Source: a virus
Reading direction: 5' to 3' (one strand)
DNA length: 64,000 bases
IMG/VR virus record: IMGVR_UViG_3300031965_000004
Location: 30,430 to 94,429 of that record
The translations under genes and the position numbers were made by a program. The notes under the pieces were generated by a model. It was not told the origin of the DNA. It ran no database searches and worked only from the letters and a program-made list of their open reading frames with translations. Position 1 is the first letter of the stretch, and every line of letters starts with the position of its first letter. Shown piece by piece: positions 5,337-33,840 of the stretch.

Positions 5337-5612
5337 ATGGCCGTGGACAAGACCCCACCATCACGATCAAAGAAGAAGAGACCCGCCCGATCGAAGATGA
5401 CGGGGAGGTTTGTCTTCTGCCCGCACAGCAACCAGCACCACCCCTTGTTCGCGCTCGAGGTCGTTCAGAAGATCGAGACCGGGAACTTGTGGGTCAAGTG
5501 CCTCTGCGGGATCCGGATTCACTTCGACAACAACAAGCTACCCACCATGACCAAGGAACAGGCCGTCAAGGCCGGAGCCATGCTCCCCTTCGTCCTTCGT
5601 AAGGAGGCGTGA
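5337..5612 (+). CDS. small basic Zn-ribbon protein (possible regulator)
   Basis: GGAGG RBS; CPHS..H and CLCG; first gene of the + strand module. Confidence 0.55.
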   Translation: MAVDKTPPSRSKKKRPARSKMTGRFVFCPHSNQHHPLFALEVVQKIETGNLWVKCLCGIRIHFDNNKLPTMTKEQAVKAGAMLPFVLRKEA

Positions 5613-7858
5613 TGCCCCGCAACGTGACCGCAGAACTGGACGACGACGATCTCTTCGACCCGGACCTCGAGTTCGAGGACGACGACGACGACGAGTTCGA
5701 CGACGACGAGCCGCGCGAGCCCGACCCGTTCTCCGCAGGCTTGCGGGACGCAGACGTGGTCGAGGAGACCACCACGACCACGACCACGAAGAAGGCGGCC
5801 AAGACGGCTCCCGCGAAGAAGAAGGCCGCGCCGGCGAAGAAGAAGGCGGCCAAGAAGAAGACGACCAAGAAGAAGGCGGCGGCCGACGACGACGACACGC
5901 CCCCGGAGCCAGCCATGCGCCTGCCCCACACGCCCCCCCAACCGGCCCCGTCTGCGGCTCCGCCCCAACCCCGGGAGACCGGGCTCGACGCCAAGCGGCC
6001 TTGGGGTGACGGTCCCAGCCCGTTGGAGCTGGGTGCCGCTCGGGACGGCGCCATGATCGAGATCGACCGGAGGGTCGCCTACAACGACTCAACGGGCCAC
6101 CCGGGCGGCGGGAGCTACACGGGGGTGATCGGACAGGTTCCGCATCGACCGGGATTCAAGCTCGAGACCCGGCGGCGCTGGGGCGGCGGCGAATACGTCG
6201 CGAGGGGATACGTGAACGGCGAAGTCAGAGAGAACACCTTCGAGATCGGCATGCCGAGCGTCGACCCGGGCGACGAGCGGCGGGAGAGCCGGTTCCCCGA
6301 GGTCGACCGGGCCTTCTCGGAGCACGGCTACCCGCCAGGTTACGACTCCCCCTACGGCCCGCCGTTGGGGGGGCCCCCCGAGTTGGGCTACCCGCCGGCG
6401 GGACCCTATCCCCCTCCAGGTGCGGGCTACCCGGGCGCGGGCTACCCGCCTGCGCCCGGTCCCTACGGGGACCCCATGTCGGGGTTTGGGCGGCGCTTCA
6501 GTGTCGACGACGACGAAGAGAAGCGGGAACTTCGCGAGCAGCTCGCGGAGCTCCAGCGCCAGAACGCAGAGACGAGAACGGCCATGGAGGTCGAGCGCGT
6601 TCGGCGCCAGGCCGAAGCCAACCAGACCGGGCTCATGAATCAGGTCTCGAGGCTCGAAGCGAAGATCGAGGGTGGCGTCAGCGCGCCCGGGAAGAACGGG
6701 TCGGAAATGCTCGAGTTCATGCGGATGCAGGCGACACAGGAGGCCGCGCGCCGCGAGGAAGACCGGAAGGCGGAGCAGCGCCGCTGGGAGCAGGAACAGG
6801 CGGAGCGCAAGAATCACGAACAGGAGCAGCGTCGGATCCGTGAGGAGAAGGCCGAGCGCTGGGAAGTGGAGCGCAAGGATCGCCTCGAGCGCGAGGACCG
6901 CGACCGCCAGCGCCGCGAGGAGGAGGACCGCAAGGAGCGCCTCTGGCGCAAGGAGCAGGCGGCGCGCGACGACGAGTGGCGCAAGACGATGGCGGCCAGC
7001 CAGGCCAAGCCGCTGGACATGATCCAACTGCTTGGCGCGCTCAAGGAGGTTTCGAGCCCCTCGGACCCCATGGGCCAGCTCCACTCCATGCTGGGAGTGG
7101 TCGAGCAGATCAACGAGATCAAGAACGGGGGTGGGAGCGAGGAGACGAGCTCCGCGGAGCGCATGGTGCGGACCGTGGGCGAGACGGCCGGGCCGATCCT
7201 GGCCGAGCTCGCGCAGGCGTGGACCAAGCGCTCCGAGCCCGCCCAGGCGCAGCCGTTGACCCAAGAGCAACACCAGGCGTTGCTCTACCAGCAGCATCAG
7301 CAGCAACTCCTGCTCGAGCAGCAGCGAGCGGCGTTCTACGCGCAGGCCCCGCAAGGGCAGGCGCCAGGGCTTCCGCAGCCGGCTCCGGCGCAAGCGGCTC
7401 CTCAGCAGCAGCAGGGGCCGGCGCCGCTTACGCCGCAGAAGTGGGGCGAGATCCTCAACAACACCGTTCAGCATGCGGAGGCGGGGACAGCTCCGCTGGC
7501 GGCCGTCCAGAACCTCTTCCTGCTCTGCCAGGAGATCGAGGCGGAGGACGCCATTCGCGAACTGGCGGAGGGGACCGTCGACAAGGCGGTGAACAAGGCT
7601 CGGGCGGCCAAGCTCGTCGTGACGGACGCTCGCTACCGAATCGCGATCGACAAGTTCGTGGCGCTCGGAGAGCCGGGAACGTCGGGGCGCGCATGGCTGG
7701 ACGCCTACTTCGGCGTGATCCGAGAGGGCTGGGCAGAGGTCTTGCGGATCCGGTCGGGGGCGGCTGCCCCGCCTCCTTCCCCGCCCGCGCCTGTCGTTGG
7801 GCCGCTTCCGGCCGAGGCGGCGGCCGAGGAATACGAGGAGTCGGAAGAGGGGTTCTAG
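5609..7858 (+). CDS. large low-complexity / coiled-coil protein
   Basis: 749 aa with acidic N-terminus, KKAA repeats, Pro/Gly/Tyr tract, charged coiled coil and Q-rich segment. Confidence 0.75.
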   Translation: MMPRNVTAELDDDDLFDPDLEFEDDDDDEFDDDEPREPDPFSAGLRDADVVEETTTTTTTKKAAKTAPAKKKAAPAKKKAAKKKTTKKKAAADDDDTPPEPAMRLPHTPPQPAPSAAPPQPRETGLDAKRPWGDGPSPLELGAARDGAMIEIDRRVAYNDSTGHPGGGSYTGVIGQVPHRPGFKLETRRRWGGGEYVARGYVNGEVRENTFEIGMPSVDPGDERRESRFPEVDRAFSEHGYPPGYDSPYGPPLGGPPELGYPPAGPYPPPGAGYPGAGYPPAPGPYGDPMSGFGRRFSVDDDEEKRELREQLAELQRQNAETRTAMEVERVRRQAEANQTGLMNQVSRLEAKIEGGVSAPGKNGSEMLEFMRMQATQEAARREEDRKAEQRRWEQEQAERKNHEQEQRRIREEKAERWEVERKDRLEREDRDRQRREEEDRKERLWRKEQAARDDEWRKTMAASQAKPLDMIQLLGALKEVSSPSDPMGQLHSMLGVVEQINEIKNGGGSEETSSAERMVRTVGETAGPILAELAQAWTKRSEPAQAQPLTQEQHQALLYQQHQQQLLLEQQRAAFYAQAPQGQAPGLPQPAPAQAAPQQQQGPAPLTPQKWGEILNNTVQHAEAGTAPLAAVQNLFLLCQEIEAEDAIRELAEGTVDKAVNKARAAKLVVTDARYRIAIDKFVALGEPGTSGRAWLDAYFGVIREGWAEVLRIRSGAAAPPPSPPAPVVGPLPAEAAAEEYEESEEGF

Positions 7859-7885
7859 CGCCCCTCCGGGGGTCGGCGGTAGGCT
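7858..7885 (+). promoter_or_regulatory. putative virus-specific promoter (GCGCcCC-N15-TAGGCT variant)
   Basis: 7864-7887 matches 8997-9020 at 21/24 nt; intergenic. Confidence 0.55.
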
Positions 7886-7891: not shown

Positions 7892-8065
7892 ATGAGCAAG
7901 AGCAAGACACAGGCAACGCGCGCGCTTGTCTTTGGCGGCCCCGTGGTCTTCGTCCTCGCGAAGCGGCTGCCGAAGGGCCAGACGTGGCGGCTTCCCCTCC
8001 TGCTCTTGGGGGGAGCCGGCCTCGCGTTGGGCGCGTGGCGCACCTACAGCGCCGGTCAGAAGTAG
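7892..8065 (+). CDS. small membrane protein (57 aa)
   Basis: MSKSKTQATRALVFGGPVVFVLAK...LLLLGGAGLALGAW; two hydrophobic stretches; below the ORF-track cutoff. Confidence 0.55.
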   Translation: MSKSKTQATRALVFGGPVVFVLAKRLPKGQTWRLPLLLLGGAGLALGAWRTYSAGQK

Positions 8066-8067
8066 CC

Positions 8068-8658
8068 GTGGCTTGGCTAGAAATGGGGCTTGGCGCTTTC
8101 GAGCCGGTCCAGGCCCAGGACGACTTCTCCTACTCCGCGGAGCGAGGGATTTCTCAGGTCTACAACCCCTTCGTTGTGGTTGAGACCTTCATGGATCCGC
8201 TTGGCACGTCCCGTGGCAGCAAGAAAAGAAAGAAGCGCGAGCAAGCCGCAGCCGCTGCGGCTGCTGCTGCCGCCAAGCGGCAGCAGCAGCAGCAGCAGCG
8301 CCTAGAGCAGCAACGTGCCCAGGAAGCGTTGAGCCAGGCTCAACGAAGGGTTGGTGTCGCTCTAGGCGCTGCCGAGTCGATCCTTGGCTGGATCAGGGAG
8401 TCGGCGAGGTCTCTCGTGATCTTCGCGGCGGTTCGTCGCTCCCTCGACGAGGCGCAACTCGCTTCGCAGGCGATCAAGTTGGCAGACAAGGCGGAAGAGG
8501 AGGCAGGGCAACTCCTGTATCAGAAACTGCCAAACAGCGTCGCCGCAGCAAACGCGATGGCTTCGGGCCTGGACGAGTTGGTGAGGCGGCTCGGTGCCGT
8601 TGCAGCGGGCATTGAGAGGATCGAGTTTGAGATCAAGCTCCGGGCGCTCCGCGCGTGA
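8068..8658 (+). CDS. putative virion protein (MGLG motif, coiled coil)
   Basis: GTG directly after the previous stop; N-terminal MGLG. Confidence 0.55.
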   Translation: MAWLEMGLGAFEPVQAQDDFSYSAERGISQVYNPFVVVETFMDPLGTSRGSKKRKKREQAAAAAAAAAAKRQQQQQQRLEQQRAQEALSQAQRRVGVALGAAESILGWIRESARSLVIFAAVRRSLDEAQLASQAIKLADKAEEEAGQLLYQKLPNSVAAANAMASGLDELVRRLGAVAAGIERIEFEIKLRALRA

Positions 8659-8981
8659 ACGACGCCGAGAAGCGCGAGCACGCGCAGCAGCTCTATGAGA
8701 CGTTCTGCACCGCGACCGACAACCTCGCTCGAGGCATGCTCGCGCTCGGTGAGCGAATGGAGCAGAGCCACAAGCTGAAGGTGATCGAACTCGACGAAAT
8801 GCGCGCTTCACGGGAGCAGGCCGCAGCTCTCCAGCGACAGGTGGGAGTCCTGGTCGAGGTGATCTCTCGAGCGCAGGGGATCCCGGTCCAGCCGATCTCA
8901 ATGCCTATGCAGCATCCCAACGCCCACATGCAGAACATGGTGAATGGAGCTCTGCGAGGGTTGTTCGGCGGCGGGGCCTAA
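8655..8981 (+). CDS. coiled-coil hypothetical protein
   Basis: GTGA-coupled ORF. Confidence 0.6.
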   Translation: MNDAEKREHAQQLYETFCTATDNLARGMLALGERMEQSHKLKVIELDEMRASREQAAALQRQVGVLVEVISRAQGIPVQPISMPMQHPNAHMQNMVNGALRGLFGGGA

Positions 8982-8990
8982 AGCGTGCGT

Positions 8991-9018
8991 GCGCTACTCC
9001 GGGGGTCAAAGGTAGGCT
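8991..9018 (+). promoter_or_regulatory. putative virus-specific promoter GCGCTAC-N15-TAGGCT
   Basis: Intergenic, upstream of the protease; same spacing at 17710, 21767 and 62507(-). Confidence 0.6.
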
Positions 9019-9046
9019 GACAGGGGTTGGCGAGGAGACCCCTCCT

Positions 9047-9661
9047 GTGGCTTATTTGGGCGCAAACGAACTGCACGATCTCATGACGCGCCCGGGAGCC
9101 GGGCACGCGGCCGGTATGACAGCTCCTCGCGTCGAGCGCATTCAGATCCCCGAGGGACACGCGGGGACCGTCGTGACGCTCCAGGTCATGCAAGACGCGG
9201 TCGGTGGCGGCGAGGGCGCGCACAACACCGAAGTCCGCCACCTCGCCATGAAGATCGTTGAGGGGTTGCCGCCCAAAGCCTACGAGCGCGAGGTCCGCGC
9301 GATCTACGACTTCATGCGAGAGCACGTCCGCTACACGCTGGACCCGCGCGGGCTCGAGTGGGTCCAAACGCCCTGGTATACGCTTCTCGTGGCCGGAATG
9401 GGCGATTGTGATGACCACGCGGTCGCAATCGTCGCGCTTGCGATTTCGCTGGGCCACGGGGCCGGATTCCGAACGGTCAAAGGCGATCCGTCCCGCCCGG
9501 ACGAGTGGTCGCACGTCTACCCCATAGTAGGGATTCGAGAGCGCGGCATTCCGCGCTGGATCCCGATTGACACCACCGAGGTGAGCAATCCTCGGTTCGG
9601 GCAGGACCCGCCGGGTGCTGACCGTGTTCCGCAAAAGAACTGGGTAATCGCCCCGGCGTAA
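9047..9661 (+). CDS. transglutaminase-like cysteine protease (putative maturation protease)
   Basis: VRYTLDP, GDCDDHA (Cys), SHVYP (His), PIDTT (Asp); AGGAG RBS. Confidence 0.8.
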   Translation: MAYLGANELHDLMTRPGAGHAAGMTAPRVERIQIPEGHAGTVVTLQVMQDAVGGGEGAHNTEVRHLAMKIVEGLPPKAYEREVRAIYDFMREHVRYTLDPRGLEWVQTPWYTLLVAGMGDCDDHAVAIVALAISLGHGAGFRTVKGDPSRPDEWSHVYPIVGIRERGIPRWIPIDTTEVSNPRFGQDPPGADRVPQKNWVIAPA

Positions 9662-9670
9662 GGATTCAGT

Positions 9671-11458
9671 ATGTCTAGCCTGAGTTTTGAGCAAAGCATG
9701 ATGGCCCTCGGCGGGCGTATGCAGAACGTGTTCCCGCAGGTCCCCTACGGGCGAGGCATGGGAGACGCCCGGAGCGAATCCTATGGGCGCGCGCGAGAGG
9801 AGTGGAGACGCGCGGTTCCGATCGCGGACGGCTACGTCGTCGAAATCCAGCGCTCGATCAAGGCGTTGCGAGACCGGCGAGACGCCTACCAGAACGCTGC
9901 AATCGCAATGGAGCGTGACCTCGGCCCGGTCGGCGGATACCAGATCCAGCAGGTCGCGGGGCAGATCGTTGGTCTCTCGAGCCAGATCAGCGACATGATC
10001 GACCAGATTGAGCCCGCGTTCAATCGCTTCAACAGCGCGTATCAGGGGTGGCGGTCCATGTCAGGCGACTCGTCTTGGCTCACGGCAGAGCAAGCCAAGG
10101 CGGCCGAAGGTCCCTATCCCGGTAATGGAGGCGACTGGGTCGTCAGCAAATTCGCCGCGATCGCGTCGTTGGCGGCCAACACCAACACGGTCCTGCGCGA
10201 CCTCGAGGCGAACTACCAGGCCCTCCAGAGCCAGGCCCAGCAGGTCAACGAGGCCAAGCAGAAGCAGGCTCGCGAACTCCAGCAGATCGCCGACGATCAG
10301 GCTCGAGCGGCGAAGCAGGCGGCGGAGGACGCACAGGTGCAGGCCGACGCGAGGAACGCTGCTGCCCTGGCGGCGCAGCAAGCGGCGGCAGCGCAAGCCG
10401 ACGCTCAGGCGCGGGTCGAGTTGGCCCGGATCCAGGCGCAGCAAGCTGCTAGCGCCGGCGAAGCGGAGCGAGCGCAAGCCGACCGGAACATTCAGCTCCA
10501 GATCGAGCAGCAGCGCCTCGCGCAGGAGGCCGCGCTTCAGGAGACGTTGTTCGCGCTCAAGCAGCAGGAGGCGCAGCGGGCCTACGAGCGCGAGGAGCGC
10601 AGTTCCGAGCGCCAGGAGGAGCGCGACCAGCTCGCCTTGATCCTGCAACTCATGGACAAGGGCCTGATCCAGCCGGGACAGGTTGAGCTCGAGGGCATTG
10701 GGCCGCTCGGCGCCCCTCAGGCGCAAGGCGCGAACTACCAGGGCGCCGCGAACTACCAGGGTGGGCCGGTCCCGCTCGGATACCAGTTGATCGACGAAAT
10801 GACGGGCCAGCCTGTCCAGCAGGGCTACCCTGGGGGCCAAGTCTACCCGGGCTACCCGGCTCCGATGCAGTCCTACGGCTACCCGGGCACGCCAACCTAC
10901 GGGCCCCCGCCCGTCGTCGCTCCCGCCCCGCAGCAGCAGCAGCAGGCCCCGCAGCAGCAGGGCGGGATCCCCGGGATCGAATTCGGCCCGCTCGACGTGG
11001 GCCGCGAGTTGTTCGGCATGGGCGGCATGGGGGACGGCGAAGCTGTCTCCTTGCCCGCAGGCGCGAAGGTCGCGCCTGGCTACCTCATGTCGCCAACCGG
11101 CACGGGCAACTGGACGGTCACAGCGCCAGACGGGCGACAGTTCTACACCAGCAACGCCCAAGTCACGCAGCCTGGATCGGTCCAACTCCTCGACCCGCCG
11201 GCCGGCGTGATCTTCTACAGCAAGCCCGACGAACCGTCCATGTGGGACTCGATCGCCAAGGGCCTCAACACGATCACCCCGTTTGGGGTGAAGGCCGCCG
11301 ATTCCTACCTGCGCGCCGAGCGAGGCGAGTCCCTCCTCTCGCCTCAGCAACCACAAGGTGGCGGTGGGATCAGCGGCACCACGCTCGCGATCGGCGGGGC
11401 CGTGCTCCTGGGGATCGCGGGCGCCGTCGTCTTTGCCACCCGCAAGAAGGGGGACTAG
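9671..11458 (+). CDS. putative membrane-anchored virion protein (coiled coil, GMG motifs)
   Basis: GRGMGD and GMGGMGD; long Q/A coiled coil; C-terminal TM followed by RKK. Confidence 0.75.
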   Translation: MSSLSFEQSMMALGGRMQNVFPQVPYGRGMGDARSESYGRAREEWRRAVPIADGYVVEIQRSIKALRDRRDAYQNAAIAMERDLGPVGGYQIQQVAGQIVGLSSQISDMIDQIEPAFNRFNSAYQGWRSMSGDSSWLTAEQAKAAEGPYPGNGGDWVVSKFAAIASLAANTNTVLRDLEANYQALQSQAQQVNEAKQKQARELQQIADDQARAAKQAAEDAQVQADARNAAALAAQQAAAAQADAQARVELARIQAQQAASAGEAERAQADRNIQLQIEQQRLAQEAALQETLFALKQQEAQRAYEREERSSERQEERDQLALILQLMDKGLIQPGQVELEGIGPLGAPQAQGANYQGAANYQGGPVPLGYQLIDEMTGQPVQQGYPGGQVYPGYPAPMQSYGYPGTPTYGPPPVVAPAPQQQQQAPQQQGGIPGIEFGPLDVGRELFGMGGMGDGEAVSLPAGAKVAPGYLMSPTGTGNWTVTAPDGRQFYTSNAQVTQPGSVQLLDPPAGVIFYSKPDEPSMWDSIAKGLNTITPFGVKAADSYLRAERGESLLSPQQPQGGGGISGTTLAIGGAVLLGIAGAVVFATRKKGD

Positions 11459-11460
11459 CC

Positions 11461-11736
11461 ATGTCGTCCTATGGAATCGGCGCGTTGACCGCTGCGGGCG
11501 CAGAGGTTGATTCCACGCCAGGGCGAGAAGATCTTCTCGCGCAAATGCCGGGGTTCGGTCCGTTGCCGTCAGACGTCTACAGCGCGAGTAGCCACGCTGA
11601 CCAGTCCGCGTTGGAGCTCCTCAGCTCCGTTGGCCAGGCTCGTGCAGCCAGGACAAGCAAGGTCGGCGCGGTCGTGGCGGCGGCGGCGGTCGTGGCGGCG
11701 GTCGCTTGGTTCTTCGGACGCAAGAAGCGGAGGTAG
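11461..11736 (+). CDS. small C-terminally anchored membrane protein
   Basis: MSSYGIG...VVAAAAVVAAVAWFFGRKKRR. Confidence 0.7.
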   Translation: MSSYGIGALTAAGAEVDSTPGREDLLAQMPGFGPLPSDVYSASSHADQSALELLSSVGQARAARTSKVGAVVAAAAVVAAVAWFFGRKKRR

Positions 11737-11738
11737 TC

Positions 11739-11903
11739 ATGCTTCAGCCCATGTATGGATCGCCTGGCGGTTACGCCGGGATCAACGGCTGCGGCTGCGG
11801 CATGCGCGGCCTCGGCGCCACTGAGGGAGGTGTCAAGCCGGTCTTGGTCGTCGCCGGCCTCGCGCTCGCGCTCTGGCTGTTCCTCCCCAAGGGCGGTCGG
11901 TGA
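11739..11903 (+). CDS. small C-terminally anchored membrane protein
   Basis: GCGCGMRGLG followed by a TM segment. Confidence 0.65.
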   Translation: MLQPMYGSPGGYAGINGCGCGMRGLGATEGGVKPVLVVAGLALALWLFLPKGGR

Positions 11904-12463
11904 GCTACGTTTACACGGGGCAGGCGGGGCTAGGCGGAGAGGCCGCCGACGCCTTTCTCTCCTTCTTTGGCGTTGGCAACGAGACGGAAGCGGAGCGGCT
12001 CGCACGAGAGAGCGCGAGCGCTCCGCCGTCAACGAAGGCCCAAGAGACCACGTCCAACGCGGAGGCGATTGCGTCGCTGCAAGCGCAACGGACTACCGCG
12101 CTCGAGTTGGCGCTTGCGTTTCCCCAGCAGACGCACTATGCCGAGCGCGCCAAACAACTCGAGAGCCAGATCATTGCCCTCGGAGGTTGGCCGGCCGCGC
12201 CCCCCACGCAAATGGCCTCGCGCCCCTCTCAAGCGGTCACCGTCCAGCAGCCGGACAAGCCGAGCGCCCTGACCGCCATGTTCGCCGCGAGCCAAGAAGC
12301 TCGAGCGGCGCGTCAGCGTGCCGACCCGGGCTCCATGATGTCGTTGCTCGGACCCATGAACGTCACGGGGGCGTGGAGCACCACCGCCAAGGTCGGGGTC
12401 GGCGTGGCGGGTGTCGCCGCGCTCTCGCTCGGTCTCTACCTCGCGCTGAGGCCGAAGTCATGA
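11900..12463 (+). CDS. C-terminally anchored membrane protein
   Basis: MSYVYTGQAGLG...TM-RPKS. Confidence 0.7.
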   Translation: MSYVYTGQAGLGGEAADAFLSFFGVGNETEAERLARESASAPPSTKAQETTSNAEAIASLQAQRTTALELALAFPQQTHYAERAKQLESQIIALGGWPAAPPTQMASRPSQAVTVQQPDKPSALTAMFAASQEARAARQRADPGSMMSLLGPMNVTGAWSTTAKVGVGVAGVAALSLGLYLALRPKS

Positions 12464-12810
12464 GCTACGTCTACACGGGAATGGGGGAGGGGGAGGCCGG
12501 CGGCGGGGACTTCTTCGGCGGGATCATTGGCGGGATCGGCAAGATCATTGAGCCGCTCGCCATAGGCGGGGTCATGGCCTACCAGACCTACGCCGACGAT
12601 CGCGGCCAGACGCGCGACCTCAAGGCCCAGCGGGCCATGGCCGCGCAGGTCGCTGAGATCCGTCAGCGGGAGGCCGGGCTGTCAGCGGAGCTGGCGACGG
12701 CGCTGGCGCCCATGCGTCAGGAGCGCTTCAAGTTGATCGCCGGCGGCGCCGCGTTGCTGGGGGCGATCGGACTCGCGGGGTTCTTCGTGCTGAAGGTGAA
12801 GAAGAGGTGA
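12460..12810 (+). CDS. C-terminally anchored membrane protein
   Basis: MSYVYTGMG...TM-KVKKR; ATGA overlap. Confidence 0.7.
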   Translation: MSYVYTGMGEGEAGGGDFFGGIIGGIGKIIEPLAIGGVMAYQTYADDRGQTRDLKAQRAMAAQVAEIRQREAGLSAELATALAPMRQERFKLIAGGAALLGAIGLAGFFVLKVKKR

Positions 12811-13106
12811 GCGTTGATCGAAACTGGCTCGCAAACGTCCGCCTCGCCAACCGAACGCAGCTCGGGTTGGCGGGCATGGGCGCCACGGTCTCCGAGCAGA
12901 TCGCTGCCGACTACGAGCGGAGGCGAAACGCCGGGCCAGCTCCTCTTCTCGGCGCACCTGTTCCAGCCCCCACGTCAGGACCTGCCCCAGGGCCTGCCCC
13001 CGTTTCTTTCGTCCAATCGAACCTTCCGCGCTACCTCGCCTACGGCGCGGGAGGCGTGCTCGTGTTGGCCCTGGGCTTCGTCGCCTGGCGCACGTTCAGG
13101 CGGTAG
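12807..13106 (+). CDS. C-terminally anchored membrane protein
   Basis: LGLAGMG...TM-RTFRR. Confidence 0.7.
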   Translation: MSVDRNWLANVRLANRTQLGLAGMGATVSEQIAADYERRRNAGPAPLLGAPVPAPTSGPAPGPAPVSFVQSNLPRYLAYGAGGVLVLALGFVAWRTFRR

Positions 13107-13108
13107 CC

Positions 13109-25431: not shown

Positions 25432-26192
25432 AGTCGGCCGTCCTCTACTTGCGCGTCTCGACGCAGCTCCAAGAGCGCGAGGGCGCCTCGCTCGACGCCC
25501 AGGAGGACGCTTGCCGGCGCTACGCCGCGAGCCGAGGGCTCGCCGTGGCCGGGGTGATCCGAGAGCAGGTCTCGGGGCGCAAAGAGACGCTCGCGCGCCC
25601 CGGGCTGCTCGAGGCGATCGACTACCTCGAGCGGGGGGAGGCGACCCACTTCGTCGTGTGGAGCCTCGATCGCTTCGCCCGCAACGTCCATAGCGCGACC
25701 GACTTGATTCACCGCTACTTCGGCGAGGGGCGCGACTACGACTTGCTCGTGGCCACGGAGGAGATCGACACCCGCACGGCCGGTGGCCGGATGCAACTCC
25801 ACATTCGCCTGGCAATCGCCCAATACGAGGCGGAGTTGACGAGTGAGCGCATTCGGGCCACGAAGCGGTTTCTGCGCGCGTCCGGGTGCTACCAGGGGGG
25901 CAAGGTCCCCTACGGGTATCGCGTCGGGAAGGGCACGCGGAACGGTTCCCGCCGGCTGGTGTCGCACCGCCGGGAACAGGCGATTCTGCGCCTTGCGTGC
26001 AAGCTCCGCCAGTCGGGTCTGTCCTTGCGCCAGTCGGCAGCCCTAATGGAAACTAAGGGGGTGACGAATCGCAAAGGGCGACGGTTCGACTCTCGCCAGA
26101 TCAAGCGAATGGTCGACGCCGCCCACCTCGAGAAGGACTCCCTGGATGGCCATTCCCGACGCCACGCTGAAGCCGACCGGAGCACGGCCTGA
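25428..26192 (+). CDS. serine recombinase (resolvase family)
   Basis: YLRVST (catalytic Ser), SG...RPGL, LDRFAR, EAELTSERIR, GGKVPYGY. Confidence 0.9.
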   Translation: MKSAVLYLRVSTQLQEREGASLDAQEDACRRYAASRGLAVAGVIREQVSGRKETLARPGLLEAIDYLERGEATHFVVWSLDRFARNVHSATDLIHRYFGEGRDYDLLVATEEIDTRTAGGRMQLHIRLAIAQYEAELTSERIRATKRFLRASGCYQGGKVPYGYRVGKGTRNGSRRLVSHRREQAILRLACKLRQSGLSLRQSAALMETKGVTNRKGRRFDSRQIKRMVDAAHLEKDSLDGHSRRHAEADRSTA

Positions 26193-26499
26193 GGGAGTGT
26201 TGCTTCACGTCGCCGAGGCGATCGGTTCCCCGGTCAACGGCCTGAACGTGGTCGGGATCCCGTTTGTCGACGTCGGGGTCTCGCCGGTCGCCTTCGACGA
26301 AGCCTACCTGGAGGTCCGCGGGCGCCCGCTGCAAGTCAACAGCTCCGTCACCTTCATGACCGAGGGCATTCACCCGACGCCGCTCGAGGTGGGGGGCGCG
26401 CTCGCGGCTGACAAGCGCTCGATCGCCCTCAACTTCACGCAGGCCGGCGCCGATCAGGTGATCCTGCAAGTGTTCTTGCGCCACTCGGAGATCCAGTAA
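26146..26499 (+). CDS. putative virion protein
   Basis: Beta-rich; in the structural operon. Confidence 0.6.
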   Translation: MAIPDATLKPTGARPEGVLLHVAEAIGSPVNGLNVVGIPFVDVGVSPVAFDEAYLEVRGRPLQVNSSVTFMTEGIHPTPLEVGGALAADKRSIALNFTQAGADQVILQVFLRHSEIQ

Positions 26500-27167
26500 T
26501 GGCCAAGCGCATGCTCGTGCATTGGGGCGGAGGAAGCGGGGACAGCCCCTTCGAGGCAGCGTTGACGCTTCTCACCGCGACCCCCATAGAGATCGGGGCG
26601 GACCTCGCGAGTCCGACCTTCAACGCGGCCTACGCTGGAGGCGTGGAGACGTTCGCGGAGCTGTCGGACGACGACGGCAACCCCGTTCAAGACGTGCTCG
26701 GCTCAGCTAACCCGATCACCCGGGCGTTCACCTACAACAAGACGGTGGTCGGAGACACGGTCACCTTCACGTTGACGGCCAACGACGGCGGCCCGAACGT
26801 CACGGACGCGGAGGTGGCGACGTGGCTTCCCCGGCTCTACTACGGGGTGGACGCAAACGCGGCGCTGGCGACCGAGGCAGACATTGAGGCGCTTGCCAAC
26901 AGTCTCCTCGGCGCGGACAAGGCGCTGAGCACGACTCTGGCTCCGGTCGCGGAATACATCTACTACGCCTTCCCGGTGTCGTTCGCAGCAGCCGCGCTGG
27001 ACTTCCAGTTCGGGGCCTTCCCGGGCGGGTTCACGCAGGTCGTCGCGTCGGTGCCAGTCACAGCAAACACGGCTGGCGCTCCGACGCTGAACTACCAGAT
27101 TTGGCGCAGCACGTTCGCGCAGGACACGACGGTCACGGGGCCGCTGGCCTTCAACGTGGCGGCGTAG
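26499..27167 (+). CDS. putative virion protein (Ig-like)
   Basis: VTFTLTA...RLYYG...YIYYAFP pattern. Confidence 0.6.
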   Translation: MAKRMLVHWGGGSGDSPFEAALTLLTATPIEIGADLASPTFNAAYAGGVETFAELSDDDGNPVQDVLGSANPITRAFTYNKTVVGDTVTFTLTANDGGPNVTDAEVATWLPRLYYGVDANAALATEADIEALANSLLGADKALSTTLAPVAEYIYYAFPVSFAAAALDFQFGAFPGGFTQVVASVPVTANTAGAPTLNYQIWRSTFAQDTTVTGPLAFNVAA

Positions 27168-27177
27168 GGGAGACGGC

Positions 27178-27849
27178 ATGGCTTCAGTCGATCCAGGCCC
27201 AGGGTTCCAGGCGGGCGACACCGCGATTCCGTCCACGCTCGGCTCGACCGGCGTCGGGGCGCCCGTCGTCCGCGCGTCCGACTTGCTCGGCAGTCACCGG
27301 ACCGTGGACGCGATCGTCGACCGCGACGCGATCCCTGCCACGTTCCGTGACGAAGGCATGACGGTTTGGATCACGACGACGCTCGAGCTCTACCGCCTCG
27401 TGGGCGGGCTCCTCAACGCCAACTGGATCCTCGAGGGATCGGTCGCGTCGGGTGTCATTCTCGTGCGCGACTACGTGGCGGGCGTCGTCGTCCGCGACGT
27501 GGTCTACAAGAACGGGGTCGCGAACGAGGTCGACCGCGCGGACGCGAGCGCGCCCGCGACCGGCGACCCGGAGGGCGTCGTGCGGGCCCTCGACTCCCCC
27601 ATAGTCGGCCAATGCCTCGTGGCGACGGAGGGCATTGACGTGCCGGGCTTCGCTGGGTTGGTGATCGGCGAAGACTACATTCTCTCCACCACGCCTGGCG
27701 GGATTGTCGGCGTGACCGACACGGGCAACGGTGCCTACCCGGCCTACCTCACCCCGGGCAGCGGCGAGGTTCTGGCTCCGGTCGGCAAGGCAGCCGACGC
27801 GACCATTCTGCGAGCCAATGCGACGCGCGGAATCCAGTTGGTCGGCTAG
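27178..27849 (+). CDS. putative virion / spike-base protein
   Basis: RDAIPATFRDEGMTVW and GLVIGEDYILSTTPG resemble phage structural domains. Confidence 0.6.
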   Translation: MASVDPGPGFQAGDTAIPSTLGSTGVGAPVVRASDLLGSHRTVDAIVDRDAIPATFRDEGMTVWITTTLELYRLVGGLLNANWILEGSVASGVILVRDYVAGVVVRDVVYKNGVANEVDRADASAPATGDPEGVVRALDSPIVGQCLVATEGIDVPGFAGLVIGEDYILSTTPGGIVGVTDTGNGAYPAYLTPGSGEVLAPVGKAADATILRANATRGIQLVG

Positions 27850-28130
27850 TGAGCTTCGACGCTGGCGCTCGAGTCGAGGTGAGGGCGAAGCAGGCCCTTG
27901 CGTGGCGGGCGGGGGTCGTCCGCCACGTTCCCGGTGACGCGCACGTTGACTGCGCGCTTGGCTGCTACGCCGTCGAGCTCGACGTGCCCGTCACCGCCAA
28001 CGACTGGACGGGCACGGCGCGGCGCTACGGGGGCGAGGCTTTGGTCGGCGGCCCCGGCAACCTCGTCTTCGTCAACCAGGTCTCAATCAAGCTGTTCCCA
28101 GGCGAACTCATAAGAAGTGAAGGCGGCTAG
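27849..28130 (+). CDS. hypothetical protein
   Basis: Coupled ORF. Confidence 0.5.
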   Translation: MSFDAGARVEVRAKQALAWRAGVVRHVPGDAHVDCALGCYAVELDVPVTANDWTGTARRYGGEALVGGPGNLVFVNQVSIKLFPGELIRSEGG

Positions 28131-28132
28131 CC

Positions 28133-31100
28133 ATGGCTCAGCGCTCAATTACCCTCCCGCGAGTGGGCGGGCTCGGAGCTGTGAACCTCGTCGAGGGCAC
28201 CGACCAAGTTCTCTTGCCGCAGATCGAGGGCACGACGGCGGCGCGGTCGCTCTGGGCGGACGCCGCGGCCACGAGCGCCTTGCTGGCGAGCGGCACCAAC
28301 GTGGCCACGGTCACGTTGGGCGCAGCCGGGAGCACGGTCACGATCCCAGGCAGCCTGACGGTCTCGGGCACAGCGACCGCGATCAGCACGGCGAACTTGA
28401 CCGTGGCAGACACGGTGATTCTGGGAGCGTCAGGAGCCGCGACCGGAAACGAGGCCGGTATGGCCTTCGAGCGCGGGAGCACGGGCGACGACGCGATCCT
28501 GCTCTGGAACGAGGCGAACACCCGCTTCGAGCTCGGGTTCTTCAACACGGTCGGTGGAACGACCACGCCAACGGGGGCCCTCGCCGCACTGTCCGACCTC
28601 CGGGCCAAGGACCTGACGCTCGCGGGAACGATCACGGCAGACGGGGAACTGACAATCCGGAGCGGAGGGACTGGCGCCCTGCAAATGGTCGGGGCGAATG
28701 GCACGACCCCAGGCCAAATGCTTGTCCAAGCGGGGGGAAACACGGGAACGGGCGCGGGAGCCATTACTTATGTGTTCGGAGGCTCCTCCACAAGCGGATC
28801 CGGCCGAGGCGGAGACGCATTCTTCATTGGCGGAATCGCCGCCAGCGCAACAGGCGACGGCGGGGACGCAGCCGTAGACGGGGGCACCTCGGTCGGCGGG
28901 ACGGCCGGGTCCGTCCTGCTCGGAACGCAGGCTGGATACACAAGCGCGGTTGTGATTGGCCAGTCAGGGATCACGACCGACTTCCCGGCCGGGTCCACGG
29001 TTGACTTCACCGGGGCGACTGTCACTGGCCTGCCGGCGACTGACCTCAGCTCCGTGCTCGCGACCGGCAACAACTCGGGCGGCACAAGCATCGTCCTGTC
29101 AACACCAAGTGAGATTCAGTCAACGTCCGGCACGTCGGGCGACCCGATCTCGATTCAGGCTGGAAGCGCGTCGAGTGGAACCGGCGGAACGGTATCTATC
29201 GTCGGAGGACCCTCGTCTGGGGGCAACACCGGGCCGTCCGCGTCGATCGAGGCAGGAAGAGGAGGGGTGACGGGAGTCGGAGGTCCCTTCTTCGCGTTTG
29301 GCGGGCGCGGCGGAAGCACGAGTGGCGCAGCGGGGGAAGCGACGGTCCGAGGCGGCTTGCCGAACGACGGAAACGGCGGAGACGCCACGCTTGCCGGGTC
29401 GGCAGGGGCCACGGCAACTGCCACGGCAAGGGACGGCGGAAACGCCAACGTGGTCGGGGGGGGGGCAGTTTCCGGTGGAGTTCCCGGCCGCGTCCTCTTC
29501 ACGTCGGGCACGACGAGCTATCCGCTCACGGCGGCAGGTGTAGGCCCCGCTCTGACGACGACGGCCCAGACGATCATTGAGGCGATCAATGAGGTCGCGG
29601 CTGCTTCGCCGACTCTCAGCTCCGTGCTCGCGACCGGCAACACGACCGGTGCGAATGACGTGGTGGTGTCCTCAGGGCAGGTCCTTCGAGGCGTGGACGC
29701 GGCGACTGGGACGGCGCTCACGCTGCGCTCCGGCAACTCCTCAGGAGTAGGAGTTTCAGGCCCAACAACCACGATTCAAGGAGGGAGCCCCGGAAGTTCA
29801 TTGGGGGCCTGGACTGTCCGAGCAGCTTCGGAGGCAAACCCATGGCAGTCCGTGACTTGGTCGCCTGAGTTGGGCTTGTTCGCCGCTGTGTCAAGCACCG
29901 GCACGAATCGAGTCATGACTTCGCCGGACGGGATCAACTGGACGGCTCGGGCCGCCTCTGAAGCAAACTTCTGGAATGGGATCGCTTGGTCACCTGAATT
30001 GGGTCTATTCGCCGCTGTGGCTCAGGACGGCACGAATCGAGTCATGACTTCGCCGGACGGGATCAACTGGACGGCTCGGGCCGCCTCGGCGGCAAACGTG
30101 TGGCACGAGGTCACCTGGGCGGCTGAATTGGGCTTGTTCGTCGCTGTGGCTTGCACCGGCACGAATCGAGTCATGACTTCGCCGGACGGAATCAACTGGA
30201 CTGGACGCTTGTCTGGCAATGACGGTTTTTGCTGGCAGGACGTGACGTGGTCGCCGCAGTTGGGGTTGCTCGTCGGCGTGTCAAGCGACAACTTGGCCAT
30301 GACCTCACCGGACGGAATCACCTGGACGTCCCGCACTGTCCCCGGAGGGGTTGGGGTCTTGGCTTGGCAAGGGGTCACTTGGTCGCCCGAACTAGGTTTG
30401 TTCGTCGCTGTGGGCTCCGACGGCGCGAACCGGGTCGCGACCTCGCCAGACGGAATCAACTGGACGCTTCGGAACGCTTCGGGAGCAAATCTCTGGGACG
30501 AGGTCAGGTGGGCGCCTGAGTTGGGCTTGTTCGTCGCTGTGGCCCAGAACGGCACCAATCCGGTCATGACTTCGCCGGACGGAATCAACTGGAGCGCCGT
30601 GGCGGCGACGTTCCCTCAGTGGAGGTCTGTCGTTTGGGCGCCACAACTTGGCCTACTTGTATCTGTGGCTATAACTGGATCAGGCGCAAACCGAGTCATG
30701 ACGTCGCAAGCCACCTTCGGCGACGGCGGGGCAGTCGTAATCACGGCGCCAGCGGGTGACAGCGGCGGCGACGTCACGATCACGGCCGGCGCGGCAATCG
30801 GAGGCACTCAGGGCCGCGTCCTCTTCACGTCCGGCACGACCTCTTACCCGCTCACGGCGGCCGGTGTTGGGCCGCCGCTGACGACGACGGCCCAGACGAT
30901 CATTGAGGCGATCAATGAGGTCGACGCGGCGCTAGCGGGGGTCACAGAGGACGGCGGGACCCCGAATATCGTCACGATCACGGACGCGCTGGTAGTGGGG
31001 GCGCCCGCAAGCACTGTTGCGACCGGCGCAAGCGACATTGTCGCGGGACTCGCGGGAGGCTACTTCCTCCACTACGACCCGTCAGGAGCGATCCTACTCT

Positions 31101-33073
31101 TCGGGGAGGACTTCGGCGGAGGCCAAACCTACTTGGGCCTTTACGCCGTGGAAAACGGGACCCAGATCGACATGGCGTCGGACGCGGTCTTTGGTTGGTC
31201 CCCCTCGACCACGACCATTACCGGAAACGCCCAAGACACCAGGCTGAGCCGTCCCGCTGCGGGCGAGGTCCTCGTCGACGACGGCGCGGGAGGAGCCGCG
31301 ACCCTGACCGCCGCGACGGTCAAGCTTGGCACCGGTGGACCGACGCTGACGAAGGGGACGGGCAGCCCGGAGGGGGTCGTCACGGCCCCGGTTGGCTCGC
31401 TGTTCGCCCGCACGGACGGGGGCGCGGGAACGACGCTCTACAGCAAGGAGAGCGGCGCGGGAAACACCGGCTGGGCGACGGTGGGAGTCACGCCAACCCT
31501 GTCGTCCGTGCTCGCGGCCGGCAACACAACCGGCGCGAACGACGTGGTGGTGTCTTCGGGGCAGGTCCTTCGGGGTGTGGACGCGGCAGGTGGGACAGAC
31601 CTCGAACTCCGGGGGGGCAATGGTTCTGGCGCGGGAATGGGCGCTGGCGGTGTCTTCATTAACGCGGGGACTCCTACAGCCGACGGCAACGGGCCCAATG
31701 TTGAAATTTACGCCGGAAACGGAGCGGGGAATGGGCACGGCGGCTTACTCACGCTTGAGTCAGGCACGGCGGGAGCCGTGGGCAACGGAGGGGACCTAGA
31801 TATCCGGGCCAGGAACGGCGGCGCCACCAGTGGTAACGGTGGCGACCTCACGCTCACGGCCGGCACGGGAACGGGGGGCGGCACTCATGGCCGCGTCACC
31901 CTCACGTCCGGCACGACGAGCTATCCGCTCACGGCTGCCGGCGTTGGACCGGCCCTGACAACAACTGCTCAGACGATCATTGAGGCAATCAACGAGATCG
32001 ACGCGGCCGGCGGGGCGTCCTCCCTCAGTTCCGTGCTCGCGGCCGGCAACACAACCGGCGGCACTGATCTTGTCCAGACCTCGGGTGACGTTATTCGAGG
32101 AGTCGACGCTGCGACAGGAACCGCGCTGGCGTTGAGGGGCGGTGCGTCGTCCGCGGCAGGTGCAGGAGGGGCAGTCACGATCACGGGGGGTGCTCCTGTT
32201 AACGGAGACGGAGGCGCAGTATCGCTTGTTGGCTCCAATGCTGTCACAAACGGCAGTGGAGGCACCGCTACGGTTCAAGGCGGTGACGGGTTAGGGAACG
32301 TTGGCGGGACTGCTTCGCTTCTGGGTGGAAATTCTGGCACGCAAGCCGGCGGCGCTGCTGTCGTTCAAGCGGGGACTTCTGGGAACGGCGACGGTGGGAA
32401 TGTCACGATCGTTGCGGGGGCGGGAGTCGGCGCAAACAAGAGCGGCGGGACCGTCACGATCGTTGCGGGGGTATCCACGTCAATGTTTACAGGGAGTTTG
32501 GTCAGCATTACTGCCGGACAAGGCGGACCATCCGGCGGCACTGGCGGCACGTTGCAGTTGCGAGGCGGTCCGGGTGGGGCCTCCTCCGGGGTCGGAGGTC
32601 CCGTCATTATCTCGGGTGGGATCCCGATTAGCGGCGGCGGTGGCGCTGTCACAATCACGGCCTCAGACGCCGTCTCCGGCGTTGGCGGCAATGGTGGCGT
32701 GCTCACGCTCACGTCGGGTGCGGGGGCGGTCGCCAACCCCGGAGGCGCGCTCACGATCAGGTCCGGTGCAGGTGGCGCCTCGAGCGGGAACTCGGGAGCG
32801 GTTACGATCGACGCGGGAGCGGTTACGGGCGGGACGGCAGGCACGATCACGATCGGCGGGACGAATGCCAGTGCTGTCAACCTGGGACGTTCGGCAGGCA
32901 CGATCGGGTTCTTCGGGGCTGCGGCGGTCGCTCAGTCGGCGGCCTACACCCTGACCGCAACTGCGGTTCTTGACCGGACCCTGCTGGCTAGCGCCAGCGC
33001 GACCGTGACGAACAACAACAACGCGCTGGCCGCGTTGATCACCGACCTCCAAGCGCTAGGCTTGATCGGGTAA
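28133..33073 (+). CDS. large modular spike / fibre with Gly-rich repeats and a 7-bladed beta-propeller
   Basis: 1646 aa; seven W..V.W.PELGLF.AV...VMTSPDGINW blades; three TTSYPLTAAGVGP.LTTTAQTIIEAINE linkers; GSPEGVVTAPVGS motif. Confidence 0.8.
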   Translation: MAQRSITLPRVGGLGAVNLVEGTDQVLLPQIEGTTAARSLWADAAATSALLASGTNVATVTLGAAGSTVTIPGSLTVSGTATAISTANLTVADTVILGASGAATGNEAGMAFERGSTGDDAILLWNEANTRFELGFFNTVGGTTTPTGALAALSDLRAKDLTLAGTITADGELTIRSGGTGALQMVGANGTTPGQMLVQAGGNTGTGAGAITYVFGGSSTSGSGRGGDAFFIGGIAASATGDGGDAAVDGGTSVGGTAGSVLLGTQAGYTSAVVIGQSGITTDFPAGSTVDFTGATVTGLPATDLSSVLATGNNSGGTSIVLSTPSEIQSTSGTSGDPISIQAGSASSGTGGTVSIVGGPSSGGNTGPSASIEAGRGGVTGVGGPFFAFGGRGGSTSGAAGEATVRGGLPNDGNGGDATLAGSAGATATATARDGGNANVVGGGAVSGGVPGRVLFTSGTTSYPLTAAGVGPALTTTAQTIIEAINEVAAASPTLSSVLATGNTTGANDVVVSSGQVLRGVDAATGTALTLRSGNSSGVGVSGPTTTIQGGSPGSSLGAWTVRAASEANPWQSVTWSPELGLFAAVSSTGTNRVMTSPDGINWTARAASEANFWNGIAWSPELGLFAAVAQDGTNRVMTSPDGINWTARAASAANVWHEVTWAAELGLFVAVACTGTNRVMTSPDGINWTGRLSGNDGFCWQDVTWSPQLGLLVGVSSDNLAMTSPDGITWTSRTVPGGVGVLAWQGVTWSPELGLFVAVGSDGANRVATSPDGINWTLRNASGANLWDEVRWAPELGLFVAVAQNGTNPVMTSPDGINWSAVAATFPQWRSVVWAPQLGLLVSVAITGSGANRVMTSQATFGDGGAVVITAPAGDSGGDVTITAGAAIGGTQGRVLFTSGTTSYPLTAAGVGPPLTTTAQTIIEAINEVDAALAGVTEDGGTPNIVTITDALVVGAPASTVATGASDIVAGLAGGYFLHYDPSGAILLFGEDFGGGQTYLGLYAVENGTQIDMASDAVFGWSPSTTTITGNAQDTRLSRPAAGEVLVDDGAGGAATLTAATVKLGTGGPTLTKGTGSPEGVVTAPVGSLFARTDGGAGTTLYSKESGAGNTGWATVGVTPTLSSVLAAGNTTGANDVVVSSGQVLRGVDAAGGTDLELRGGNGSGAGMGAGGVFINAGTPTADGNGPNVEIYAGNGAGNGHGGLLTLESGTAGAVGNGGDLDIRARNGGATSGNGGDLTLTAGTGTGGGTHGRVTLTSGTTSYPLTAAGVGPALTTTAQTIIEAINEIDAAGGASSLSSVLAAGNTTGGTDLVQTSGDVIRGVDAATGTALALRGGASSAAGAGGAVTITGGAPVNGDGGAVSLVGSNAVTNGSGGTATVQGGDGLGNVGGTASLLGGNSGTQAGGAAVVQAGTSGNGDGGNVTIVAGAGVGANKSGGTVTIVAGVSTSMFTGSLVSITAGQGGPSGGTGGTLQLRGGPGGASSGVGGPVIISGGIPISGGGGAVTITASDAVSGVGGNGGVLTLTSGAGAVANPGGALTIRSGAGGASSGNSGAVTIDAGAVTGGTAGTITIGGTNASAVNLGRSAGTIGFFGAAAVAQSAAYTLTATAVLDRTLLASASATVTNNNNALAALITDLQALGLIG

Positions 33074-33381
33074 GTCGTCCTCCCCTTGGGCCGGCCGCTC
33101 GATCGTGTCGCCCGCCCGCGATAGGATTCGCGCGCCCAGGAGGCAGCCCATGAACACCCCGAACTCCCCGAACACCCCCGCCCCGCTCGATGCCCCCGAC
33201 GAGAACCCGAGCGGAGCGCTCGAACTGTGCGCGCAGCAAGGAGCGGCCGAGCTCATGGGCACCTGCTTCCTGCATCCCGACGGGTGTCCTGAGGAGCTGG
33301 CCGCACGGCCCTGACCAACGGGATCTTTCAGCAGGTGTCGGTGCAACTCGCATAATCACCCTTCACCACGAAGGAGACACC

Positions 33382-33840
33382 ATGCGAAGCAGGAAGCCGG
33401 GCCCAAAGCGCCCTGCCGGCCCCAAGCCGGCAACCCCCAAGGCCCCGGCGGGCCGAGCCCAACTCTCGTTGGAGCAGACGTTGGGCGTGCAGCTCATGTC
33501 CGCGCGCCAGGCGATCAAGGCGAAGAACGTGTTCATAGCCGAGAGTCAGTTGGCGCGTGCCACAGCCGCGCAGGCTGACGCGAAGCGGATCCAAGAGCTC
33601 GAGCTCGAGCTAGCCGCTCAGACCAACCAGCTCATGGGCGCCCTCAACCGTGCGGAGGACGCGGAGAACCACCTGCTCCACCAACGCCTGGGCCTCCCTG
33701 AGGGAGAAGTCGCCTACAGCATGGGTGCAGACGGGCTCTATTCCTACGAGGTCAAGGCGCCCAAGCCGGCGTTGATGCCTCCGTTGATGCCGGCCGCCGA
33801 CCCGAAGGTGGCGGCGCCGGACACCCCCGACCCCGCTTAA
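33382..33840 (+). CDS. coiled-coil protein (possible fibre chaperone)
   Basis: AAGGAG RBS; position after the spike. Confidence 0.55.
   Translation: MRSRKPGPKRPAGPKPATPKAPAGRAQLSLEQTLGVQLMSARQAIKAKNVFIAESQLARATAAQADAKRIQELELELAAQTNQLMGALNRAEDAENHLLHQRLGLPEGEVAYSMGADGLYSYEVKAPKPALMPPLMPAADPKVAAPDTPDPA

Follow-up and report, generated by a model that had tools for sequence, protein, structure and literature searches.

What kind of virus builds its particle from a long operon of membrane, jelly-roll and fibre proteins? The question is raised by a 64,000-nucleotide stretch of the IMG/VR virus record IMGVR_UViG_3300031965_000004, here called the window, which spans bases 30430-94429 of a single 94,429-bp contig and carries such an operon at approximately 5.4-33.8 kb of its own numbering. 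An earlier sequence-only reading had proposed that the operon belongs to an undescribed large lineage of Varidnaviria. In this study we put at roughly 80% the probability that the operon encodes the late genes, or virion module, of a tailless double-stranded DNA (dsDNA) virus that is uncultured, has a probably circular genome of 94.4 kb, probably infects a bacterium and is a distant, large-genome relative of the phage SSIP-1. The argument rests first on two shell genes and the two genes that lie between and directly after them:

21851-23155, + strand: double jelly-roll (DJR) capsid protein, 434 aa, from its AlphaFold2 model, VIA structural search and trimer prediction
19311-20006, + strand: single jelly-roll (SJR) capsid protein, 231 aa, from its AlphaFold2 model, VIA search and conservation
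23164-23874, + strand: conserved protein, 236 aa, directly after the DJR gene; candidate vertex protein
20031-21740, + strand: fusion of a LAGLIDADG-like and a Mom-like DNA-modification domain, between the two capsid genes

A HMMER search of a 1.8-billion-protein library returned 68 relatives of the 434-aa protein, and the AlphaFold2 model built on their alignment had a predicted local distance difference test score (pLDDT) of 82, with block means above 90 for approximately residues 21-320, save one block at 89. In the VIA search both barrels of the model aligned to viral major capsid proteins (MCPs), best to the STIV MCP (Z 10.9, root mean square deviation 4.4, 229 residues aligned) and PRD1 P3 (Z 10.2), and further to the capsid proteins of PBCV-1 (Z 9.1), EhV-201 (8.8) and PM2 (P2, 8.4); chains of HHIV-2 and HCIV-1 aligned to one half of the model only. 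Foldseek against the PDB gave low template modelling (TM) scores and mixed beta-sandwich matches, and it was the exhaustive VIA search that proved decisive. Prediction with three copies of the protein core gave a ring, barrel 2 of each copy touching barrel 1 of its neighbour, with at least 88% contact agreement among runs and a partner pLDDT of at least 87. The trimer scored 0.91 against 0.00 for the best of three controls, passing a mark that is reached by 20 of 30 proteins solved as same-chain pairs and by 1 of the 23 that were solved as single chains; because DJR trimers are already among the solved structures, the pass may only reflect likeness to them. Modelling in silico thus presents 21851-23155 as a double jelly-roll shell protein with a predicted head-to-tail trimer, the pseudo-hexagonal capsomer of PRD1/STIV-type viruses. 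Direct sequence searches returned little: tblastn or blastn searches of 50,697 GenBank phages with 21851-23155, 19311-20006 and the DNA of 26499-27846 were empty, phmmer and profile searches of PDB sequences gave nothing meaningful, and a single-protein scan of IMG/VR found no relative.

Relatives were recovered by searching IMG/VR and a metagenome collection with the DJR alignment; the locus scan used a smaller alignment, the fuller one being too divergent. The first is a 245,276-bp IMG/VR genome, found also in the metagenome collection, with a 123-nt end repeat, and the second is a 190,544-bp contig with a 71-nt end overlap from a metagenome-assembled genome (MAG) labelled Deltaproteobacteria. 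Two shorter metagenome contigs and one 1.4-kb fragment were recovered as well, and the module is syntenic in five other loci (L003 to L006 and L008 are such handles below). The 245-kb genome matches about 30 proteins of the 94.4-kb genome, and 91 of the proteins called on it match the 190-kb contig along its full length; these matches and the end overlap led us to read the 190-kb contig as a closed viral genome binned into a MAG, not a prophage. Both larger genomes encode two tandem DJR paralogues (L003 10001-12430; L004 10001-12577), the second sharing 29-31% identity with the window's single copy, which suggests that the larger viruses may have more than one capsomer type. Full-text literature searches found no published account of large DJR or SSIP-1-like bacterial viruses.

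The SJR protein is the best conserved of the module, at 58-63% identity in the relatives against 33-39% for the DJR protein, and has 68 homologues on contigs of up to 245 kb; some lie on contigs of 45-99 kb, one of them in a second "Deltaproteobacteria" MAG. Its AlphaFold2 model (pLDDT 78.5) is a single jelly roll whose top VIA matches are mostly viral SJR capsid proteins, namely those of SPV1 (Z 6.9), SPMV (6.4), HHIV-2 (6.4), HCIV-1 (5.6) and P23-77 (VP17, 5.4). The protein may be a penton or second shell protein, occupying the vertices or co-building the shell. A C-terminal transmembrane (TM) segment suggested for it by a hydropathy scan is a beta strand in the model and was set aside. The sequence-only reading had named three jelly-roll candidates, of which 21851-23155 proved to be double and 19311-20006 single. 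The third, 23164-23874, has homologues in L003, L006, L008, the 190-kb genome and seven database proteins; the Atlas places it only among unnamed viral clusters, with a sub-threshold VP17 lead, and HHalign comparisons with SJR and DJR families and with SSIP-1 gp44-ORF50 were not significant.

The gene between the two capsid genes matches Pfam LAGLIDADG_3 (1.2e-10) and Mom (1.1e-7) and PHROG 1384 (9e-11), and at 51-59% identity to its counterparts in the 245-kb and 190-kb genomes, across some 530 aa, it is better conserved than the DJR protein. We considered the LAGLIDADG region as an intein; since the whole two-domain architecture is kept in the relatives and no Hint domain was found, it is read instead as a fused domain.

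The closest viral structures point to a cultured phage. The best match of the DJR model among BFVD structures (Foldseek) is I1ZBI0 (256 aa; E 5.8e-9, TM 0.64 by target), and that of the SJR model is I1ZBH9 (211 aa; E 3.9e-4). SSIP-1 (JN880423), a circular genome of 43,788 bp, carries side by side the structural genes gp46 (211 aa) and gp47 (256 aa), and because the lengths match and the accessions are adjacent, I1ZBH9 and I1ZBI0 are very probably gp46 and gp47. HHalign of the DJR family with gp47 gave an E value of 1.5e-4 over 211 columns, and the product of 9047-9661, described below, matches the annotated structural protein gp34 (tblastn E 4.6e-10, and 2.4e-8 in the other direction). SSIP-1 is a tailless phage with an internal membrane and two MCP types and is classed among the two-MCP single-barrel viruses (PMC6356626, PMC4958249).

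The two genomes share further traits. In both, a gp46-like and a gp47-like capsid gene are neighbours, here with the Mom-like gene between them; the order runs from protease to capsid genes to a large distal structural protein, here a fibre; and each genome is circular and encodes a serine recombinase. They differ in size (94 kb here and 190-245 kb in the relatives, against 43.8 kb), and similarity at BLAST level is confined to two proteins. The Walker A protein gp40 of SSIP-1, annotated as structural, has no counterpart here: tblastn of all SSIP-1 proteins against the three large genomes gave no match to it at E <=0.01. The side-by-side double barrel also sets the present virus apart from SSIP-1 as published, with its single-barrel MCPs. 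On sequence and model comparison SSIP-1 is nonetheless the closest cultured relative, and a distant one. As a separate observation, gp47 itself (SSIP-1 36043-36813, 256 aa) aligns to both barrels of the DJR family (HHalign columns 80-320; Foldseek TM 0.64 by target), so that it may be a compact double jelly roll despite the single-barrel grouping.

Upstream of the shell genes lies a set of genes whose predicted products would suit a membrane-containing particle:

9047-9661, + strand: transglutaminase-fold (papain-like) Cys protease candidate, Pfam PF01841, Cys121/His156/Asp175
9671-11458, + strand: Gln/Ala-rich coiled-coil protein, 595 aa, with a C-terminal anchor (hydropathy segment 567-585, then RKKGD)
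11545-11736, 12460-12810, 12807-13106, 13109-13537 and 13695-14450, + strand: five small tail-anchored membrane proteins, by hydropathy
17789-19144, + strand: protamine-like protein, 451 aa, with basic repeats, two TM segments and a Gly-Met-Gly-rich tail
15209-17691, + strand: two proteins, 374 and 452 aa, no family above threshold
5609-7858, + strand: acidic, low-complexity, coiled-coil protein, 749 aa; candidate scaffold or size-determining protein

Pfam Transglut_core recognizes the protease candidate at E 7e-8 and 33.1 bits, above its cut-off of 23; the triad motifs could be located, and the protein is 50% identical to its homologue in the 245-kb genome. A single TM segment lies at the C terminus of each of the six tail-anchored proteins (9671-11458 and the five small ones), and basic residues come after it in five of the six, or four of the five small proteins. 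Homologues of 9671-11458 occur in the 190-kb genome, where a 638-aa protein of the 245-kb genome matches the same stretch (36% over 613 aa). Residues 1-215 of the protamine-like protein hold 81 Lys and Arg against 3 Asp and Glu (isoelectric point 12.0) and are followed by TM segments at 224-242 and 263-281; with homologues in L005 and L006, it is a candidate DNA-condensing link between genome and membrane. For the 452-aa protein, residues 343-452 match L003, L004 and L005 (tblastn E 1e-7 to 8e-14). The 749-aa protein has no Pfam or PHROG family, and nothing beyond local stretches of 52-89 aa matches it on the 245-kb and 190-kb genomes, the stretch on the 245-kb genome falling within a longer open reading frame (ORF) of 899 aa. 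The small TM proteins, Cys protease, basic core protein and spike that the sequence-only reading had listed are thus all accounted for, the last by a 1646-aa fibre, and an internal membrane is suggested by the predicted tail-anchored proteins and by the likeness to SSIP-1.

In the proteins encoded at 8000-23200 the motif G[ML]G occurs 19 times against 4.9 +/- 2.2 in shuffled sequences, an approximately fourfold excess; not one of 2000 shuffles had as many. In the small membrane proteins it often falls among the first 30 residues (near the N terminus in four of the five at 11545-14450), and the basic protein and the capsid protein carry it in their tails. This distribution fits a candidate processing site of the Cys protease.

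Downstream of the shell genes, the operon continues with candidate vertex and fibre genes:

24671-25222, + strand: collagen-like (Gly-Ala-Asp repeat) protein, 183 aa, with a C-terminal globular domain; candidate trimeric vertex fibre
25344-26192, + strand: serine recombinase (DNA-invertase-like) among the fibre genes, Pfam Resolvase 3.2e-31
26200-26499, 26499-27167, 27178-27849 and 27849-28130, + strand: four conserved small proteins; candidate vertex or fibre-attachment complex
28133-33073, + strand: Gly/Ala/Thr-rich fibre or spike, 1646 aa, from translation, composition and repeats

The collagen-like protein has a homologue in L003 and a Pfam Collagen match of 2.4e-5, below the cut-off. The four small proteins are 36-58% identical in L003 and L006. 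The fibre has no Pfam or PHROG family; it contains seven SPDGxxW repeats of about 43 aa (beta-propeller-like, approximately 29810-30850) and another module in three copies, and its N-terminal 185 aa are conserved at 52-53% identity in L003 and L006. The recombinase matches PHROG 95 (7e-51) and PHROG 125 (DNA invertase, 3e-32), occupies the same position in L006 and is similar to SSIP-1 ORF 3. An invertible fibre segment driven by it was looked for and rejected, the best inverted repeats being 21-23 nt and badly placed.

Several points weigh against a tailless virus. The virus is known here from sequence alone, with no particle, lipid, host or transcript seen, and CheckV put the completeness of the contig at 74%. 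The structural Z values of the SJR protein are only middling, 23164-23874 shows no significant HHalign link to the jelly-roll families, and the mapping of the BFVD matches to gp46 and gp47 depends on length and adjacency and on no name. Six-frame searches of the 94-kb and 245-kb genomes for the packaging ATPase families FtsK_SpoIIIE (PF01580) and Pox_A32 (PF04665) were empty or far below cut-off, and of the Walker A proteins across the three closed genomes the SNF2 helicase alone is conserved. The DJR fold is also found in cellular proteins, GH172/DUF2961 matching the model at Z 10.3-10.7 and PNGase F at 8.3, and the Atlas's own model of 21851-23155 gave the same GH172 lead; with these enzymes at equal Z, the fold by itself is no proof of capsid function.

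The cellular matches that rival those of capsids, the want of a packaging ATPase of known type and the unseen particle would all suit a non-viral mobile element, a large plasmid or similar, that makes no infectious virion and whose jelly rolls have some other role, such as that of an enzyme like GH172, of a surface layer or of a protein compartment. We consider this improbable. The DJR gene stands in one conserved operon with SJR, tail-anchored, protamine-like, protease and fibre genes, and hmmscan finds no Pfam family, GH172/DUF2961 included, in its product, for which a profile search of PDB sequences was likewise empty. Moreover, the viral structures that come nearest are apparently two neighbouring structural proteins of SSIP-1, the protease homologue is an SSIP-1 virion protein, and both this contig and its 245-kb relative are IMG/VR virus records.

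A second alternative, to which we give still less credence, is a tailed phage (Caudoviricetes) whose HK97-fold capsid, portal and terminase have diverged beyond detection, the jelly rolls being decoration or receptor-binding parts. Numerous ORFs are unannotated, the Atlas tags neighbouring clusters "Uroviricota", and many Foldseek BFVD matches of the DJR model are tail proteins, at low TM-scores. There are also weak PHROG matches to tail-fibre families at 24671-25222 (about 1e-3 to 1e-4) and to "tail protein" or "virion structural protein" at 27178-27849 (2.6e-5 to 6e-4); the tail-fibre matches are confined to the collagen repeat. Against such a phage, PHROGs and Pfam scans of ORFs of at least 250 aa detected no terminase, portal, HK97 capsid or tail-tube family, and six-frame searches of the 94-kb and 245-kb genomes found no Terminase_6N, TerL_ATPase, Terminase_3, Phage_portal or Phage_capsid, although these are profile searches that very divergent forms could escape. 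No Walker A motif is a plausible terminase, and the DJR matches span both barrels of true capsid proteins, with a ring-like predicted trimer. The sequence-only reading saw no terminase, portal, HK97 or tail genes in the window; for HK97 capsid, terminase and portal, none is detectable in the whole 94-kb contig or the closed 245-kb relative either.

For the tailless virus that we favour, the packaging motor is a difficulty. No conserved P-loop packaging ATPase was found in the 94-kb, 190.5-kb or 245-kb genome, which extends to the whole genome and two closed relatives an absence first remarked for the window. Walker A motifs in the 94-kb genome belong only to the SNF2 helicase, an SMC-like protein and one unlikely Cys-rich context, and those of the relatives, apart from the shared SNF2 helicase, only to UvrD- and RecD-like helicases. 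The lineage thus fails one usual hallmark of Varidnaviria. Set beside the characters of Bamfordvirae, it has the side-by-side DJR MCP and, in silico, the trimeric capsomer, and lacks a detectable FtsK/HerA (A32/P9-like) ATPase. The proposal of an undescribed large Varidnaviria lineage is largely supported, in fold and in size, and the two refuting conditions set for it were checked without refuting it; the lineage does, however, have a distant cultured relative in the 43.8-kb SSIP-1. As neither a terminase nor an FtsK/HerA-type ATPase is encoded, enclosure of the DNA probably relies on condensation and co-assembly, or else on a host or unrecognized motor.

Tectiviridae (PRD1), Turriviridae (STIV) and Corticoviridae (PM2) have genomes of 10-18 kb. 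The virus resembles them in its DJR fold (Z 8.4-10.9 over both barrels), predicted trimer, separate SJR protein, many small membrane proteins and vertex fibres; tblastn and blastn against GenBank phages and phmmer and profile searches against PDB sequences found no sequence similarity to them. All three families encode an FtsK/HerA-type packaging ATPase (PMC5894146), and none is detectable in the virus described here. Yutin et al. (2018) described DJR genomes without an ATPase, the "Odin group" and FLiP, which implies encapsidation without a viral motor, but only small DJR genomes were known to lack one, and FLiP has single-stranded DNA (PMC5894146). The present virus is like them in having a DJR capsid gene and no detectable P-loop packaging ATPase, and unlike them in its 94-kb genome, with relatives of up to 245 kb; this is a likeness of features.

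Other systems share parts of the design. SPV1 (Portogloboviridae), whose capsid chain is the top structural match of the SJR protein at a middling Z of 6.9 that carries no claim of kinship, likewise encloses a condensed nucleoprotein core in a particle that contains a membrane, and is not known to have a packaging ATPase; it differs as an archaeal virus with a 20-kb genome and only single-barrel shell proteins. Adenoviridae have a DJR shell, very basic DNA-condensing core proteins and a Cys protease that cuts several precursors at (M/L/I)xGG-x or (M/L/I)xGx-G. As a working analogy only, the basic core protein, the Cys protease and the enriched G[ML]G motif, which resembles adenovirus protease sites, recall that arrangement, whereas adenoviruses have an adenain-fold protease in place of a transglutaminase fold, an IVa2 packaging ATPase and no membrane. 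Helvetiavirae (Sphaerolipoviridae, Matsushitaviridae and Simuloviridae), with two single-barrel MCPs and an A32-like ATPase, differ in both respects from the double barrel and missing ATPase found here.

Further observations concern the genome as a whole. Its first 143 nt recur at the end of the contig with two mismatches near the start, an overlap that is direct and not an inverted terminal repeat, and we read the 94.4-kb genome as circular or terminally redundant, probably circular. G+C content is 64-73%. A gene call based on G+C at third codon positions (GC3) gave about 120 genes with GC3 of 0.78-0.91 and supports as real the + strand operon at approximately 5.4-33.8 kb. Every gene there is on the + strand, Shine-Dalgarno-like motifs precede 17 of 30 starts, and 11 junctions have a 1-4 nt overlap or 0-10 nt spacing, bearing out the earlier description of bacterial ribosome-binding sites and coupled operons. 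Most module proteins have no PHROGs or Pfam annotation, the exceptions being 9047-9661, 20031-21740, 24671-25222 and 25344-26192. The sequencing runs that hold this DNA are soil and sediment metagenomes, and no RNA run is among those listed.

Outside the operon, the window encodes further features of interest:

52336-54234, - strand: Cas12f/TnpB-like protein, 632 aa, with a Cas12f1-like TNB domain and repeats on both sides
58029-58101, - strand: tRNA-Arg(TCT), the sole tRNA in the window
61531-62472, - strand: patatin-like phospholipase, in all three genomes at 38% identity

The sequence-only reading had listed a tRNA and CRISPR-Cas for this DNA, and nineteen copies of a repeat of about 32 nt flank the Cas12f1-like gene at 51172-52161 and 54286-54666. 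Their start-to-start spacing is mostly 46-56 nt, implying very short spacers, with four at 72-76 nt, and the 632-aa protein is kept in both larger relatives at 31-39% identity. The phospholipase may have membranes as its target when the virus enters or leaves. A dual-specificity-phosphatase-like protein (2146-2655, - strand), below the Pfam cut-off and conserved at 39-41%, adjoins a T4-type dNMP kinase (2655-3254, - strand). Upstream of the window, contig positions 1-30429 encode an SNF2 helicase, a PD-(D/E)XK nuclease, an SMC-like ATPase, an MT-A70 methylase, a PAPS-reductase-like protein, DpdA (which modifies DNA with 7-deazaguanine) and an L5 gp82-like domain. Among the large ORFs no family of DNA polymerases came to light, and Pfam and PHROG scans of the large ORFs gave no protein-primed one. 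A eukaryotic virus mis-binned with bacteria, a polinton-like virus or giant virus relative, is suggested by the Nucleocytoviricota-like genome size and DJR capsid and by the collagen-like, patatin and dual-specificity-phosphatase-like genes, but is scarcely credible given the Shine-Dalgarno-like sites and overlapping start and stop codons along long operons, the Cas12f/TnpB-like gene with its repeat arrays, DpdA, Mom, the L5 gp82 domain and the T4-type dNMP kinase, the missing A32 ATPase and the relatives in two MAGs labelled Deltaproteobacteria.

For a tailless virus of bacteria, the observations suggest a model in which DJR trimers would form the shell, the SJR protein would occupy its vertices or be part of the lattice, and the tail-anchored proteins would populate an internal lipid membrane. 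The protamine-like membrane protein may condense DNA against that membrane, while the Cys protease would mature virion proteins, possibly at G[ML]G sites. The collagen-like protein, the four small conserved proteins and the 1646-aa propeller-bearing fibre could together make up a host-recognition vertex. The DNA would be enclosed by condensation and co-assembly, or with a host or unrecognized motor, rather than by a viral P-loop pump. A bolder version, which we advance tentatively and think unlikely to hold in full, is that bacteria host DJR membrane viruses of 94-245 kb that gained their size independently of eukaryotic giant viruses; in these, DNA would be enclosed with no viral packaging ATPase. 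Condensation of the genome would fall to a membrane-anchored protamine-like protein, with shell and membrane assembling around it, and the transglutaminase-fold protease would then mature the particle at G[ML]G, following an adenovirus-like logic of core and protease.

To our knowledge, the genomes of those cultured dsDNA phages that have jelly-roll shells and no tail measure about 10-44 kb, and the large phage genomes described so far all come from tailed phages. The sequence-only reading had allowed for a genome of at least 64 kb; with 94.4 kb here and 190-245 kb in the relatives the case is stronger than claimed, and the lineage most likely consists of tailless viruses of SSIP-1/PRD1 type whose genomes are two to five times as large as those known and in which no packaging ATPase is detectable. 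Current classifiers, which rely on marker genes of tailed phages, are likely to mislabel such genomes in viromes or to miss them, as the Uroviricota tags on the Atlas neighbours illustrate. A mechanistic question follows: what encloses up to 245 kb of DNA when there is neither a terminase nor an FtsK/HerA motor? If true, a DJR lineage whose closed genomes measure 94, 190 and 245 kb would undo the link of large phage genomes to tails and would be a bacterial counterpart to the size growth of eukaryotic giant viruses.

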